From an uncultured Candidatus Saccharibacteria bacterium (GTDB taxonomy: Bacteria > Patescibacteriota > Saccharimonadia > Saccharimonadales > Saccharimonadaceae): a stretch of DNA of 64,000 nucleotides. The notes below the pieces were generated by a model, which saw only the letters and a program-made list of their open reading frames with translations, searched no databases and had not been told where the DNA came from. Position 1 is the stretch's first letter, and each line of letters opens with the position of its first letter. Both the position numbers and the translations under genes were made by a program. The DNA lies in contig CAUQMT010000003.1 in the NCBI GenBank assembly GCA_963519435.1, positions 48,516 through 112,515 on the forward strand, given 5' to 3'. Shown here piece by piece: positions 34,770 to 41,327 of this stretch.

Positions 34770-34859
34770 ATCTCTAGTATACTACTTTTTGGCGTCATAG
34801 TAATCTCGAGAAAACTGCTCTGGCACCTGCTGCAACAAACGCTCTAATACAAAGAAAAT

Positions 34860-34954
34860 ACCCCTCCTGGCGCGAAGAGGGGTCTGCCGCCCCAGCGGAG
34901 ATTGCAGCCGAAAACGGCCGGTCAATCCCCGCTGGGGCGGGATGGGAGGGTAAT
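34860..34954 (-). terminator. Structured 3' trailer and terminator of cassette 1
   Basis: Long hairpin CCGCCCCAGCGGGGATTG...CAATCTCCGCTGGGCGG, then ACCCCTC/GAGGGGT followed by ATTTTC. Confidence 0.7.
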
Positions 34955-35299
34955 TCACACGAGACTATCGTAAATTACCCTCACTACGTCCCACCCGTCT
35001 CGTGGGTAGTAATGAAGTTTTTTGACCTCAGCCAAGCTGGGGTCAAAAAAACTCATAGACTGAGGAGGTTTTTCAGTTTCAATATTTCTCACCTCCTCAA
35101 TCATCCCCAACCCCGAGAACCGGAGACGCGTAAGCACGCCTCCGGTCCTCGGGTACACCCGCCACACCCACACATACGTGGGCGGACGGGGAACAATAAA
35201 ATCGAGCGGGACATAGTCCCACTCGAAGAACAACCCCAAGTAAGTAAAAAACTCGAGGAATGATTCAATTGCTAGGGGCGGCTCCCTTTTCTCGGCCAT
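34955..35299 (-). CDS. Hypothetical 114-aa protein (cassette 1)
   Basis: SD GAGGAGG; own promoter and terminator. Confidence 0.7.
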   Translation of the reverse strand: MAEKREPPLAIESFLEFFTYLGLFFEWDYVPLDFIVPRPPTYVWVWRVYPRTGGVLTRLRFSGLGMIEEVRNIETEKPPQSMSFFDPSLAEVKKLHYYPRDGWDVVRVIYDSLV

Positions 35300-35482
35300 C
35301 TCTGGCCTCCTCTCTGCCCCCTTCCGGGGCGGTCAGCGGAGCTCGATCCTGTACCGAGCCCTCTTTAGCGCCGTGAAAACCACCGTTTCGCAGCATCAAA
35401 GAGGGCTCGATTCTACGTCTATATTAAAGTGCGCCAGAGACCGGCGGCATCGCCCCCAGCCCCTCGCCGGTATTATAACACA
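35300..35482 (-). promoter_or_regulatory. Extended -10 promoter and about 165-nt structured leader of cassette 1
   Basis: TGTGTTATAAT (-10 at 35472-35477); 12-bp IR 35355-35366/35398-35409; GCACTTTAATA at 35422-35432. Confidence 0.65.
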
Positions 35483-36248: not shown

Positions 36249-38111
36249 TTATAACGACTTATATTCTCCGCAAGCTGCGCACCACGAGGTTACTTTGGTT
36301 ATCAACTCGTTTAGCTTTTTAGCAGAGTTTTCGTCCTCGTAGGCAACATACCTCAGATCAATTGTTAGCGCCAACCGTTGTTTTTGAAGCTCGGCTGGAA
36401 GTTCATTGCCAAAAGATTCCATATAAGCTACAAGATTCTCCACCTCTGCGTAAAAAGCTCGTTCGCGCTTGGCAGCCTCTTCTTGTTTTTGTTGTTCAGC
36501 ACGGATTTGGCTAGCTTTTTCACGCACCTCCTCTGGCGAAACAATCACAAGACTTGTCCAGGTTTCGTAACCGATGGATTCCTTCTTCTCTACTTGGCAC
36601 ATAATTTGCTGCCCGCTCGGTATTTCAAAAGCTTCCGGATCTATATCAAGAATATTATCGACATTAACTGTTCTGTAGCTGAAATACGGGCCCGTGTATT
36701 TTTCGTTTCTTTGATATTCTACCTCTAGTTTTTCATCGCCGCTCGTGACGTAATCAGGGTAGAGACGATTAATATCGTCAACAGTCTCTTGTCCGCAAGA
36801 TTCTGCGGCAGTAAAGCTAGCAACTCCTTCAGCAATCTCGCTGATTCTGCGAAGTTCGCCGTTTTCATCTGTCAAACCGACTGCCGCGAGATGCTCGGCA
36901 ATCCGCGTTTCCAAATCTTCATCACTGAATTCTCTAAACGGTTGACCCGACTTTCTGGTAAGCCTCGCCAAATAGGTATTGGTACGACCCATGAGCCTCG
37001 TCCTATTATTTTTTGCGATGTATTCTACGACGAAATTAGCCATTTCCTCGCTAGGCTCAGCTGCAATCCGTTGTTCGCCCAACTGGAGCAATCCGTTGTC
37101 CAACACGGATTCTACTAACCTAACCGGCTTATCGTCGCTGCCTACCACAAAACCTCTGTCTTCATCAGCAAACAGCTGCGGAGCAACCTCCCGCAGGTCG
37201 CTTAATTTAACATTGGTGATACCTTTTAGAACTGGTATTTTAGCCTCTTTACCATTCTGTCGAAAACATATATCCTCTGGATCAGCCACCACCAGCTGGC
37301 CCATTTTAATCAGCGATCGCTGGCTCCGTTTTCTTTCTTCGCCTTCACTATTGCGATAAAGCCTGCCTTTATCTGTATCTACTAGTCTATAAGTATCTAC
37401 GGCGAACACTTCAGATCGTGTGTAGTTGCTACTTACTAAATCTGTTATCTTCATCTGGCGCCATAATTTATCGGCGCTGCCAGCTATTATACATTTCACT
37501 ATCTGCTTGCGCTCTTCATCAGATGGAAGCGTCAAGTCGCATTCAGCTAACCCCTGCTGATTTTTCAAGCGGCGCAATTCTCGATTAACCTTACCAGGAA
37601 CGCCTGGCCGTATATCGTGTCCGAGCAGCTCTTCCCTCGTCATATTTTGTATAGACGCCAACACTTCTAGTTGCTTCAACCAATCGGAATCATTGTATCT
37701 TGGGTCTATTAGATTTCTCCAGCGTTCCTCGCATGGTCTCTTCTTGCTGCCGTACACAACCAAGTCTGCCGGTGTTTTCTGCAAGGCCACTATAGCGGCA
37801 ACTTGCATTCGCACTGTTTCAGGGAAACGTTCTGCTTCGGCCAGCATACGGGCGTGCTCGGGACTTTCGCTGGTAAATTGTTCCATCTGGCGGCCAACCT
37901 CGGTCAATTCGCCATTTTCGTCAAGCGCGCCGAGGCGCTGTAATTTCTCTACTGGCACGTCGTCTCTAGTGTAATCCAGTACAGCCGCGCTAGCTACTGT
38001 GTCGTCCGGGTTTGTGCCATCGCTAGATTCTCGTACAGCCATCTCGGGATTGGGACGTTTCGGAGCACCAAACAAATCTCCTGGGGTTGGTATTTTTCTT
38101 CCTTCGCTCAT
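36249..38111 (-). CDS. Protein with DEAH-helicase C-terminal (HA2/OB-like) region but no ATPase core
   Basis: LQRLGALDENGELTEVGRQM...HARMLAEA; IVKCIIAG; no Walker A or DEAH motif. Confidence 0.6.
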   Translation of the reverse strand: MSEGRKIPTPGDLFGAPKRPNPEMAVRESSDGTNPDDTVASAAVLDYTRDDVPVEKLQRLGALDENGELTEVGRQMEQFTSESPEHARMLAEAERFPETVRMQVAAIVALQKTPADLVVYGSKKRPCEERWRNLIDPRYNDSDWLKQLEVLASIQNMTREELLGHDIRPGVPGKVNRELRRLKNQQGLAECDLTLPSDEERKQIVKCIIAGSADKLWRQMKITDLVSSNYTRSEVFAVDTYRLVDTDKGRLYRNSEGEERKRSQRSLIKMGQLVVADPEDICFRQNGKEAKIPVLKGITNVKLSDLREVAPQLFADEDRGFVVGSDDKPVRLVESVLDNGLLQLGEQRIAAEPSEEMANFVVEYIAKNNRTRLMGRTNTYLARLTRKSGQPFREFSDEDLETRIAEHLAAVGLTDENGELRRISEIAEGVASFTAAESCGQETVDDINRLYPDYVTSGDEKLEVEYQRNEKYTGPYFSYRTVNVDNILDIDPEAFEIPSGQQIMCQVEKKESIGYETWTSLVIVSPEEVREKASQIRAEQQKQEEAAKRERAFYAEVENLVAYMESFGNELPAELQKQRLALTIDLRYVAYEDENSAKKLNELITKVTSWCAACGEYKSL

Positions 38112-38138: not shown

Positions 38139-39572
38139 TTAATTATTGAATTTATTCTGTAGAGCTGCTAATAAACTATCCATATCTTGGGAATTTATCT
38201 CTGCGTCGCGTTTGGCTTGCGCTTCGTCGTTTAAGTCTCCTTCTGTAAAGCCCCAGCCATCACCGATTGACGGCGATTCCTTACCAGACATACCAGTTGC
38301 ACCATCCCACTCTTCGGCTATAGATTTCTGGATAGCTTCTATTCGCTCAAGCTGCTCTCTTGTAATACCCTGCGGCGGCTCGTAACGCACGCCAAACCCA
38401 TGCGGAGCGGCCGTGTAAGCTTTCTCGTGCGTAAGAATCACTACACTTTCGTTAAGAACTTCCGGGCCCCACGTTTTATAGTCATCGCGGCGATAGCCAG
38501 ATTCGCTAGGCTCAACAAGCTCGCCGTCAGCACCTATCACGTAGGCTATGCTTCTACCAGTCATACCATTTGTACGCGTAAAAAACGAGAGTGTATATGG
38601 TAAATCGTGGCGCGTCTCGCGCTCGCCAGAACGACTAGTACCACAAAGCGGCACTATCTGCCACACCTTTTCATACCATTGTTCTGCCCGTCTACCTGCT
38701 GATTGAATAATTGCCGAACGCTGTTCTGGCGACTGAAAACCGCGCTCTGCTTCGTCAAGCATCGCTAGAATACCAACCGCCTGCTCGCGCAGAGCTGGAT
38801 CTCGAATATTATCTATATATTTACCTAATTCTTTGCGTATCGACAAAATTTCTTTCTGTGCCTCAGGAGTAATTGTTTTCTCTTTTAATTCTAAGGCCTT
38901 GATTCTGATAACTTCGCGGTTAATTTCTGACGTGTATAGCTTACCGCTATGCGTCACTCTTTGCTCTTCTTGCAGCCATCGATCGTCGTCATCAGGCAAA
39001 ACGGCGTTACCGCGTCTCAAGGTCGCTTCTGCAGACATATCTATTCCAAGCTCTTCGCCGATAGCTTGCCGCATATCTTTTAGTTCGTCGTCGCGCCAGC
39101 TATTGACTCGGCGGCGGCTGCCATGCGGCCCTTCATGCTGCAATCTATACAGCTGATTCATCCGAAGGATTGTCGCTAAACCCGCCACCGATAATTGCTC
39201 AGACACTACCACTAGATTAGGATGTTCCTCATCTTTTTCATCTCTGTTATAGTACCAATCGGCTAGTTCAATAGTCTGGCGGACCGGATGCCTTTCACTC
39301 GCTTTACTCAAGAGATGGTCCGACCGTCTCCAATCCCACGCTGTATAAGTATCTAGCTCGTAATCATCATTACGCCTAGAAGACGTCCATGTTTCTACAT
39401 ATTCATGCAATACACGCGCAGGCTGCCCAACCGTAAAATCTGGCAATTCATATCCGTGGCCGTCTCTAGCTTTTCTGTACGCCACACGCGCAAATTCCTG
39501 CTGAAAGCCGCTAACATCACCCAGCAATTCTGGCGTGACACGGCTTTCTGAATTTAGCCTCTTTGGGCTCAT
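38139..39572 (-). CDS. Hypothetical protein
   Basis: Long ORF; likely start ATG 39572 (MSPKRL) after CAGGAG/TATACT. Confidence 0.7.
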   Translation of the reverse strand: MSPKRLNSESRVTPELLGDVSGFQQEFARVAYRKARDGHGYELPDFTVGQPARVLHEYVETWTSSRRNDDYELDTYTAWDWRRSDHLLSKASERHPVRQTIELADWYYNRDEKDEEHPNLVVVSEQLSVAGLATILRMNQLYRLQHEGPHGSRRRVNSWRDDELKDMRQAIGEELGIDMSAEATLRRGNAVLPDDDDRWLQEEQRVTHSGKLYTSEINREVIRIKALELKEKTITPEAQKEILSIRKELGKYIDNIRDPALREQAVGILAMLDEAERGFQSPEQRSAIIQSAGRRAEQWYEKVWQIVPLCGTSRSGERETRHDLPYTLSFFTRTNGMTGRSIAYVIGADGELVEPSESGYRRDDYKTWGPEVLNESVVILTHEKAYTAAPHGFGVRYEPPQGITREQLERIEAIQKSIAEEWDGATGMSGKESPSIGDGWGFTEGDLNDEAQAKRDAEINSQDMDSLLAALQNKFNN

Positions 39573-39654: not shown

Positions 39655-39901
39655 TAATCCCCCGCATTTTACTGGCGCGGGGGGAGCCAGATAGGGCAGC
39701 GCGGCGCTAACTCGCCAGTGCTGCATTGAAAGGACCCCGAGTTAGCGGGAAGAGATGGTAGTGATACGTGAATAGGTGACGAACCATTTCACACGTATTC
39801 AACACCTTTAGCTCTCTCCAGAGCGAACGAATTTTTCGGACGAAGCCTACTCAATCCGTTTTTTCCCGGGTTACTGCCGGTTCAGTGTGACCGGGAAAGG
39901 G
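39655..39901 (-). ncRNA. About 250-nt structured 3' trailer of cassette 2, ending in a GC hairpin
   Basis: Hairpins TTTCCCGG/CCGGGAAA, CGCTAACTCG/CGAGTTAGCG and CCCCGC/GCGGGG; segments complementary to the 5' leader. Confidence 0.6.
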
Positions 39902-40237
39902 CTAGTCGAGCCGGATCAGCCGCTTAAAGCTGAATCCGAGCTGGGTAAGCTCGGATTCGCTCAGCTGCACCCCATTCGGGATGCGGCCTCCTTCAAGTCG
40001 ACAGACCAGAGCGACCTGCCCGACCTCGTGAGTAAAGAGACCCCGGTTGTACGGAATCTCCACACCCAAGAGCCGGGTCAGAACGTCGTTCGTCGGCTGG
40101 TGGCCAACGAACGACGTGATCTTGCCCTTTACCATCTGACGAGCCTCCTCGAGACTAACCGTCTCGAGGTCATAAAGCCCGTCCGCGGTGGCGATGCACG
40201 AACCGAGCACCGCCACCGGGCGGTTATAAAGCGCCAT
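39902..40237 (-). CDS. DUF1874 / YddF / AcrIII-1-like protein (putative cA4 ring nuclease), 111 aa
   Basis: SLEEARQ...SFVGHQPT...LLGVEIPYNR...ALVCRL.GRIPNG..LSESEL; SD GGAGGTGA 5' of ATG 40237. Confidence 0.8.
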   Translation of the reverse strand: MALYNRPVAVLGSCIATADGLYDLETVSLEEARQMVKGKITSFVGHQPTNDVLTRLLGVEIPYNRGLFTHEVGQVALVCRLEGGRIPNGVQLSESELTQLGFSFKRLIRLD

Positions 40238-40553
40238 TTCACCTCCTTCGGTGAGCGTGCGTGACTCTGTAAAGCGCTTTGGGAGCCCCAAAACTGTCAT
40301 TACAGCGCACAAATGATCGCCATTCCAGCCAGGTGTCGCACCCAGCCAGACTGCCAGCCTCGACATTTCGAGACCGCTAGTCTGACCAGGGCGATAACAT
40401 GCGTTATACTGAACCAGATTCTTCCATTTTAAAGCGCTAGCTTCCCAACGAAAGCTCGTTATGCAGCGCTACGCTGCCCAGGGCTAGCCGTCTAGCAAAC
40501 CGCTTTCCGTCCAGCCACTGAGCAATAATAGCACACTATTTATCGTATGTCAA
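40238..40553 (-). promoter_or_regulatory. Consensus promoter and about 280-nt structured leader of cassette 2
   Basis: TTGACA (40548-40553), 17 bp, TATTAT (40525-40530) with TG; multiple hairpins; GCGCTTTAAAA at 40427-40437. Confidence 0.7.
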
Positions 40554-40622: not shown

Positions 40623-41327
40623 ATGACTAAACGTATCCTTCTCAAATTATCCGGCGAGCAGCTACAGGGCGAGTTCGCCAGCGGCTTCGACCCCAAGCGG
40701 GCCCGCTGGATTGCCGAACAAATCAAACCAGCGCTAGAAACTGGCGCCGAAGTCGTCATTATGGTTGGCGGCGGCAATTACGTCCGCGGCAATCAGATCG
40801 TCGGCCACGGCATCCAGCCGGTCTCGGCTCACAATATTGGCATGCTCTCGACATTGATGAACGCTATTGCCTTGGCTGATGTTTTCAACGACGCCGGGCT
40901 GCCGACCCGCGCTCTATCGACCGTCGAAGTCAACCAATTTATCGATCACTATACTTTTCGCCGTGCCCTCAGCCACATTCAAAAAGGCCGGGTTGTCATC
41001 GTTGCCTGCGGCACTGGCCGGCCGTTTTTGACCACCGACACCGCTGCCTTGAATCTAGCTTTGGAAATGCAATGTGATGTTGTGATTAAAACAACGAAAG
41101 TTGATGGCGTGTACAATAAAGATCCTACCAAATTCCCTGACGCCACCAAATTTGATAAGCTCAGCTATCACGAAGCTCTGACCAACCCCCATATCGCCGT
41201 CATGGACAAAGCCGCCATCGGTCTAGCCATGGACGAACATATCCCAGTTGTCATCTGCGACCTCCTCACCGACGGTAATATCGCCCGAGCCGCCTGCGGC
41301 GAAACAGTCGGTACGCTGATTAGTTAG
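40623..41327 (+). CDS. pyrH: UMP kinase
   Basis: KRILLKLSGE; VGGGNYVRG; GTGRPFLTTDTAA; TKVDGVYNKDP. Confidence 0.96.
   Translation: MTKRILLKLSGEQLQGEFASGFDPKRARWIAEQIKPALETGAEVVIMVGGGNYVRGNQIVGHGIQPVSAHNIGMLSTLMNAIALADVFNDAGLPTRALSTVEVNQFIDHYTFRRALSHIQKGRVVIVACGTGRPFLTTDTAALNLALEMQCDVVIKTTKVDGVYNKDPTKFPDATKFDKLSYHEALTNPHIAVMDKAAIGLAMDEHIPVVICDLLTDGNIARAACGETVGTLIS

Follow-up and report, generated by a model that had tools for sequence, protein, structure and literature searches.

We describe a single-gene cassette in which a 111-aa AcrIII-1-like ORF is carried by a conserved and highly structured RNA. The cassette lies in a 64,000-nt stretch of a Saccharibacterium genome (hereafter the window), and its conserved ends wrap either of two unrelated ring-nuclease families in one slot. 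Synonymous shuffles and covariation show that the fold is under selection. We estimate a probability of about 0.5 that this is a stabilised expression cassette for counter-defence against host cyclic-oligoadenylate (cOA) signalling. A preliminary description of this DNA had proposed an undescribed RNA scaffold with the ORF as its cargo; cargo exchange at sharp borders, covarying hairpins and an occluded start region bear this out. The best-supported conserved structure is a 3' double pseudoknot, which that description had missed.

The genome of origin (G000; 650 kb, 76% complete) carries the cassette on the minus strand. Oriented divergently from pyrH (40623-41327), it opens a variable island, the last gene of which is oligoribonuclease-like (34769-34218, a label taken from the RNase_T match of a homologue). 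The named GTDB records with the same cassette are Candidatus Saccharibacteria. In 15 genomes, the cassette occupies a fixed chromosomal locus with its promoter, the -35 box being deleted in G005. The near-consensus promoter and the lengths of the leader (282 nt) and the trailer (about 250 nt) were found as previously stated. The parts, from 5' to 3' of the transcript, are the following:

40525..40553, minus strand: sigma-70 type promoter (read 40553-40525), TTGACA-17-TATTAT with TG (extended -10), 11 of 12 matches
40482..40516, minus strand: 5'-terminal hairpin (p 0.85; paired in 20 of 20 clade I copies)
40471..40479, minus strand: 5' strand of helix 1 (H1), the basal long-range helix, partner 39694-39702 (p 0.96)
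40433..40470, minus strand: local AGCGCU hairpin, rival of inner H1 (p 0.57)
40420..40425, minus strand: 5' strand of helix 2 (H2), partner 39748-39753, with a 3-nt overlap with a PK2 strand
40408..40417, minus strand: 5' strand of helix 3 (H3), antisense to PK1, in clade I only
40341..40390, minus strand: long leader hairpin, two-sided changes in alignment A6
40234..40316, minus strand: start-proximal folded domain, with the SD (40240-40248) in a hairpin and the AUG paired
39902..40237, minus strand: cargo ORF, 111 aa, AcrIII-1/Crn2 (DUF1874, STIV B116) ring-nuclease family, PF08960 E 1e-16, GC3 0.75
39865..39886, minus strand: PK1, predicted H-type pseudoknot, 16 nt past the stop, its 5' edge being the cargo-swap border
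39826..39860, minus strand: variable hairpin separating the two pseudoknots
39751..39824, minus strand: PK2 (predicted), with stem-loop 39824-39811, linker UARA 39810-39807, stem P5, an A and the tail strand
39694..39747, minus strand: 3' hairpin (39747-39705) and 3' strand of H1 (39702-39694)
39659..39683, minus strand: terminal G+C hairpin, likely transcript end, with a weak U-tract (p 0.91; invariant in 20 copies)

Folding the reverse complement of 39655-40520 gives -411.7 kcal/mol (z -13.2), a value equalled by none of 20 shuffles, in agreement with the highly structured transcript claimed earlier. When folded separately, the leader (z -4.3) and the trailer (z -3.0) are less folded than the ORF (z -7.9). 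Under codon shuffling, the ORF reaches z -8.9 and it ranks first among 638 ORFs of its genome, which were compared on their last 180 nt with 7 shuffles each. All six cargo alleles behave in the same way (codon-shuffle z -5.0 to -10.7, 0 of 30 shuffles as good), and eight neighbouring gene segments range from z -1.2 to +1.4. Synonymous shuffling keeps the composition and costs 28-56 kcal/mol. Beyond these alleles, z is below -3 in 13 of 25 family-level Crn4-like loci and in 4 of 14 ring-nuclease genes from outside Saccharibacteria; three viral AcrIII-1 genes likewise fold beyond shuffles.

The start region is predicted to be occluded. Pairing covers the AUG and half of the SD, and opening this region would cost 14.8 kcal/mol compared with a median of 8.3, which places the gene 7th among 108 SD genes. 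The 16S rRNA of the genome bears an anti-SD. Leaderless genes are common here, and their presumed majority was not confirmed by a strict test, in which 109 of 487 genes had a -10 box right next to the ATG on its 5' side and 122 others had an SD.

Then, we investigated the pairing between the ends. The three leader-trailer complementarities that had been reported are indeed present. Helix 1 forms 14 of 15 pairs, including one G.U; its outer 9 bp are well supported (p 0.96) and its inner 5 bp (p 0.07-0.19) are outcompeted by the local AGCGCU hairpin (0.57), so that the proposed competition between the two is recovered. Helix 2 forms 6 of 6 pairs (p 0.6) and helix 3 forms 10 of 10, including one G.U (p 0.3). 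With the ORF held open, as in translation, helix 3 rises to 0.84 and its competing local stem drops from 0.66 to 0.09, in a folding program whose model does not include pseudoknots. In the consensus fold of 20 distinct clade I copies, the three helices have p 0.95, 0.57 and 0.98. They are near-invariant among these copies, the sole two-sided change being at one helix 1 position. At position 8 of helix 1, 6 of the 20 have a mismatch (A.C), the terminal pair of this helix varies between G-C, G-U and A-U, and one helix 3 pair is broken in 2. The 5' partners of helices 2 and 3 are absent from the diverged clade II scaffold, whose own long-range pairing is inconsistent among copies. End pairing is therefore plausible but clade-specific. 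In comparison, local hairpins show two-sided changes at 17 of 45 predicted pairs across both clades. The covariation expected in homologues was thus found for the local UTR hairpins, but not for the long-range helices, which are mostly invariant. The long leader hairpin has homologues in clade II and in the leaders of cassettes with other cargoes (G086, G128). One row, L074, was left out of alignment A4 because its coordinates were wrong.

An Rfam/Infernal scan, which had been suggested as a check, gave no covariance-model match for the element (ribozymes, riboswitches, tmRNA, RNase P, large ncRNAs) and nothing relevant in the window or in 16 + 8 related loci. Identity with tmRNA was rejected, as ARAGORN found none in the window's genome (it reports 36 tRNAs), and so was identity with RNase P, the RNase P-like motif sitting elsewhere in this genome. 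Among public RNA runs, 13 had matches, each with a share below 0.2. Four of them were examined and gave six short contig pieces at a depth of 2-5, too thin to place ends or assess expression. In one low-depth piece, the end of another ORF is joined at 39886, and portions of the ORF and trailer are covered by three; circular-RNA joints were not seen in these four low-depth runs.

The 3' double pseudoknot starts with PK1, whose stems are S1 (39886-39883 with 39876-39873) and S2 (39880-39877 with 39869-39866). After PK1, the general order is a variable hairpin, a stem of 3-5 bp with a loop of 6-8 nt, UARA, then a stem that covaries, an A and finally a strand that complements the loop. In the window, the covarying stem P5 pairs 39806-39803 with 39760-39757, encloses a hairpin and shows two-sided changes, and the tail 39755-39751 is complementary to loop 39819-39815. 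A motif model detected it in 18 of 105 genus genomes, as a single copy in the window's genome, and in none of 140 other genomes of the phylum; a pattern search of 300 other family genomes found none. No Rfam match was obtained for the motif at gathering score or E <= 1. The same motif follows unrelated ORFs of 51-73 aa in three genus genomes, and in environmental contigs it lies 8-37 nt past the stop codons of unrelated ORFs; on one of these contigs, the neighbours are 71% identical to genes of the window's genome.

The search pattern fixed most PK1 letters and left one S2 pair free, so the invariance of these letters was selected by the search itself. Of 32 distinct contexts, which are not mutually independent, 30 have C-G or G-C at the free S2 pair. 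PK2 lay outside the pattern. Its loop-tail complementarity is 4.58 within lineages against 2.75 across them (0 of 20000 permutations), in 12 hand-picked lineages having the stem, a blind rule misplacing the tail in the window, L139 and L064. This comparison leaves out L049, L099, L228 and L230, for which no stem was found within 200 nt, as well as L065, L077, L137 and a 57-fold variant, all taken as chance. The variant accounts for 57 of 118 metagenome matches, with a C.C mismatch and no PK2 stem. In a pair count over 12 rows, 95% of cells were paired and covariation was 0.273, a value reached in 0 of 500 shuffles; slid partners gave at most 0.056. In clade I, PK2 comprises five pairs; in clade II, it is weak.

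In the window, helix 3 runs antisense to PK1 and helix 2 shares nucleotides with a PK2 strand; the nested leader-trailer form and the pseudoknot form therefore partly exclude each other. A strand antisense to PK1 with 8 Watson-Crick pairs was found in only 4 of 15 loci, and within the leader only in clade I, so it was rejected as a general feature.

These results raise the question of whether the double pseudoknot is the core of the cassette, either as a new class of self-cleaving ribozyme or as a roadblock to exonucleases that would define or protect the mRNA end, all the rest being secondary. Its recurrence just past the stops of unrelated small ORFs, its free S2 pair, the complementarity and covariation of PK2 and its absence from Rfam all point this way. 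Against this, PK1 letters were set by the search, PK2 is weak in clade II with no stem near the motif in four loci, and G003 and G082 break an S2 pair yet keep H3. To our knowledge, neither pseudoknot contains a known catalytic core. We regard this reading as rather unlikely, and it is compatible with the one that we prefer. Hammerhead, twister, pistol and HDV-like self-cleaving ribozymes occur next to small ORFs, and the pseudoknot motif resembles them in sitting just past a small ORF. Like preQ1-II-type pseudoknots, PK2 carries a hairpin within its pseudoknot linker; the strand order differs from those known for pistol and HDV. The double pseudoknot is a covarying, previously uncatalogued RNA, a candidate ribozyme or stability element.

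To follow the cargo, we used the trailer to recover the same locus in 11 of the 105 genus genomes. The ORF is AcrIII-1-like in six and Crn4-like in five. Relative to the window, identity is 88-100% for leader plus trailer, 85-92% for pyrH and 32-100% for the cargo ORF, and four AcrIII-1-like alleles share 50-80% protein identity. In G081, leader and cargo are identical to those of the window and lie next to an 86% identical pyrH. The borders of the swap are sharp and lie at 39886 and just past the SD. Four more genomes have the diverged clade II scaffold with a Crn4 cargo, and 25 BLAST-confirmed copies, both cargoes being represented, were found among the 118 pattern matches in metagenomes. 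The alternative cargo matches the Crn4b profile (PDB 9r7b) at E 4e-11 and keeps the Thr and Arg of this family; the His is present in three of four aligned alleles and is a Tyr in G005. Within one Saccharibacteria family, 32 of 401 genomes have Crn4-like profile matches, some of them weak, as against 2 of 401 class genomes for PF08960, so Crn4 is probably the older cargo. In another Saccharibacteria genus, a Csx3-like ORF (Crn3 ring nuclease family; L174:2724-3299, G728) lies two genes from a Crn4-like gene and is possibly a third ring-nuclease family. According to the available text of PMC12830947, Crn4 has a fold unrelated to other ring nucleases and degrades cA3, cA4 and cA6; Crn4a was first characterised from an Actinomyces type III locus. 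There, Crn4 is described from type III loci, phages and plasmids, and here it is found in Saccharibacteria genomes; the string 'Patesci' has 0 matches in that text.

The annotation of the window ORF (40237-39902) as AcrIII-1-like, made previously from the letters, is supported by both the DUF1874/B116 sequence match and the predicted fold of the protein (Foldseek E 2e-7 to 6e-5). The parts of PMC11317161 available assign catalytic roles in Crn2 to a His (H47/H495) and an Arg (R514). In alignment A3, H46 and R65 are invariant, and the window allele retains H46, R65 and R85. It has Gly and Asn at the positions aligned with N451 and E88/E536; the N-terminal Asn is retained in G010. According to the same source, mutating N451 or E536 lowers Crn2 activity. 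As their equivalents are replaced in the window allele, and as the His is a Tyr in the G005 Crn4 allele, activity is perhaps low, and to judge from its residues the window protein may be a slow nuclease or a binder. The cassette protein thus resembles AcrIII-1/Crn2 in sequence family, predicted fold, His46, Arg65 and Arg85, but its gene is chromosomal in an epibiont, outside any virus or CRISPR locus, its N451/E536 equivalents are replaced and it is interchangeable with Crn4. By direct reading, no export signal is evident in the cargo proteins.

Taking these elements together, the counter-defence that we favour would proceed from a chromosomal, moron-like single-gene cassette of the Saccharibacterium, driven by its strong promoter. 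Its mRNA, of probably about 870 nt, would be base-paired from end to end, ORF included, with an H1-clamped base, terminal hairpins and the 3' double pseudoknot. This fold most likely renders the message nuclease-resistant and slowly initiated. The UTRs are a reusable scaffold for the two unrelated ring-nuclease families, whose alleles may be reshuffled via homologous recombination in naturally competent cells. The protein would bind or cleave cyclic oligoadenylate, as expected from its family, and could reach the host alarm by export or by draining the signal at contact. The clade I leader appears to have gained antisense strands (H2, H3) over both pseudoknots, which might couple their folding to translation.

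We also looked for similar units and for their codon use in the window's genome. A composition-corrected scan of 4326 windows found about 8-11 such folded regions. Those inspected are stand-alone units, in most of which a full promoter and a folded leader are followed by an SD, a small ORF and a terminal hairpin, and several have common leader or trailer modules around unrelated ORFs at scattered loci. Their other cargoes match PHROG families only weakly and Pfam not at all. Compared with the rest of the genome, eleven structured cassettes show a codon use strongly shifted towards G/C endings (GAG 0.76 vs. 0.45, AAG 0.73 vs. 0.39, CAG 0.85 vs. 0.51, TTA 0.02 vs. 0.15).

Such a codon use would be expected if the mRNA itself were the effector, made in the epibiont, protected by its fold, delivered into the host and translated by host ribosomes. 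A ring-nuclease cargo would then make sense, as an RNA invader is what type III CRISPR senses. In line with delivery, the AcrIII-1 alleles all hold GC3 at 0.71-0.78 despite their 50-80% identity, three Crn4 genes (L166, L169, L172) reach GC3 0.81-0.85 without strong folding, and common UTR modules surround unrelated ORFs. However, GGG (0.29) and AGG (0.22) are also raised in the cassettes, which suits folding better than what we take to be the codon bias of the host. In AT-rich relatives, cargo GC3 follows the genome (0.25-0.38), and the anti-SD of the epibiont's own 16S rRNA also argues against delivery. In favour of delivery, Saccharibacteria have a type IV secretion system (T4SS) mostly without relaxase, as the portion of 10.1101/2025.01.22.634366 at hand indicates, but in the accessible text of PMC10633639, reporters under housekeeping promoters were not seen in host cells. 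We regard delivery of the message as unlikely. The broader proposal that host-directed genes travel in a nuclease-proof mRNA delivered into the host, and/or that the 3' pseudoknot is a new self-cleaving or exonuclease-blocking class of RNA, is a tentative one and somewhat unlikely.

Returning to counter-defence by the protein, we searched for the system on which it would act. Among 105 genus genomes, marker genes were rare (RAMP 1, Csm1_B 0, SMODS 4), and all three were absent from 13 of the 15 ring-nuclease carriers, which are MAGs 76-98% complete. No cOA-making system is seen in most carriers, so the cargo most likely acts on the host's alarm, be it type III CRISPR or CBASS. The gene could instead reset or limit a type III or CBASS system of the epibiont itself, its fold merely tuning expression. 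One carrier (G065) does have a Cmr operon of type III-B (L186/L187, C1:729.6-734.6 kb), another (G034) has a SMODS gene with a neighbouring membrane-protein ORF, and systems of type III-B have been reported in Saccharibacteria in the available part of PMC10746230. This self-directed control nevertheless seems quite improbable, given the 13 carriers without markers and a cassette that lies outside any CRISPR locus. Among 72 neighbouring ORFs of related loci, one is csx3-like and there is otherwise no cas gene.

As for the host, cultivated Saccharibacteria grow on Actinobacteria, are naturally competent and require a T4SS of unknown substrate, according to the text available for PMC11665869 and PMC10633639. 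Actinobacteria spacers match predicted Saccharibacteria phages (PMC10746230, same part). A VirB4 Pfam search of the window's genome (76% complete) gave nothing.

Finally, a recent import by a phage or an integron-type element, without special RNA function and with a fold that is a by-product of high G+C, is hardly credible: the cassette is missing next to pyrH in close relatives, phages have both cargo families and three viral AcrIII-1 genes also fold beyond shuffles, but synonymous shuffles lose 28-56 kcal/mol at equal composition, UTR hairpins and pseudoknots covary, the scaffold spans two diverged clades, the motif has only one true match in IMG/VR, and the ORF has no close outside relative, as the next clusters, defined at 50% identity, share about 50% identity with it or less. 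A phage origin of the scaffold was likewise rejected, one search giving 0 matches and another 1 true match, with 18 loose-pattern matches all due to chance.

Several known RNAs can be compared with this expression cassette. As far as its published description goes (Weinberg 2017, PMC5737381, available in part), the DUF1874 RNA motif is structured and tied by name to DUF1874 genes and small-ORF cassette arrays; it is multistem, with a conserved internal loop, and lies in 5' UTRs of consecutive intergenic regions. By this description, which mentions no pseudoknot, our element appears to differ in being a single cassette with a 3' double pseudoknot, though the two motifs may be identical. Repetition in consecutive intergenic regions, as in this motif or in an integron attC-like array, is absent from the window's genome, where the element is single-copy. 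The hbs mRNA of B. subtilis also has a strong SD and UTRs whose long-range pairing modulates the access of RNase, but it is described in the excerpt of PMC5737220 as one 14-bp helix on a housekeeping gene, and there is no cargo exchange, folded ORF or pseudoknot. No antisense gene, as in hok-like type I toxin-antitoxin systems, was identified; the opposite strand has a weak promoter match (9 of 12) at 40382-40410. Type I toxin mRNAs (hok, aapA) share with the cassette their end-to-end pairing, occluded start and alternative conformers. Unlike theirs, its cargo is a ring-nuclease homologue and not a toxin peptide. The literature searched, which mostly excludes subscription papers, contained no account of the cassette, of the motif or of any ring nuclease from Patescibacteria.

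The available text of PMC11665869 presents as an open question by what means Patescibacteria manipulate their hosts and which substrates are carried by their essential T4SS. The locus offers a cargo with a ready assay (cOA degradation) and a logical site of action in the host. Because the scaffold tolerates ORF exchange, reporter swaps in tractable Saccharibacteria could ask whether protein or RNA crosses. The locus also suggests counter-defence of cell against cell by anti-CRISPR enzymes hitherto described from viruses and plasmids, and it supplies the covarying RNA as a candidate for ribozyme or stability studies.

Other observations were made in the window. A second hyper-folded cassette occupies 34790-35480 on the minus strand (ORF 34955-35299; z -14.1, codon-shuffle z -9.7). 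It has a conserved leader and a very fast-changing cargo of 109-134 aa, and directly adjoins pyrH in relatives without the ring-nuclease cassette. Two orphan ORFs, of 620 aa (36249-38111, with a short HA2 helicase-associated match) and 477 aa (38139-39572), are not unusually folded. Direct reading of 39643-39615 on the minus strand shows TTGAAA with CGATT 16-17 nt downstream, possibly an alternative promoter of the next gene; it recurs after the trailer of L026. The gene pyrH was detected in only 29 of 61 genus genomes.

Elsewhere in the same genome, paralogous scaffolds (C1:213174-213542, C1:232457-232705, C1:93031-93231, C2:45892-46455, C1:157.9-158.1 kb) have in common a leader hairpin and an inverted repeat in the trailer; the small ORFs in between are unrelated, mostly of membrane type, and have GC3 0.76-0.81. 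Five further structured cassettes (C1:231940-232059, C2:34493-34744, C1:207759-208169, C1:219173-219616, C2:102504-103280) include two with a common 5' module, two with a common 3' hairpin and one with a 39-aa acidic peptide. In other genomes, L228, L229, L230 and L231 (G067, G078, G086, G128) have folded leaders of 500-600 nt beside a TrmB-type regulator, with ORFs of 51-79 aa and GC3 0.85-0.97. L026, L027 and L029-L031 carry a cassette with a variable 140-aa ORF, whose trailer end resembles that of the window element. L049, L099 and L267, the last on a 92-kb IMG/VR contig, are tandem arrays of paralogous cassettes with ORFs of about 140 aa, long structured spacers and the PK1 motif. L116 contains, in an AT-rich contig, a DUF1874-like gene that is divergent (reverse strand 382-729; GC3 0.87). 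This gene lies upstream, by one cassette, of an ORF that the pseudoknot motif follows, and a separate module of about 85 nt repeats between cassettes.
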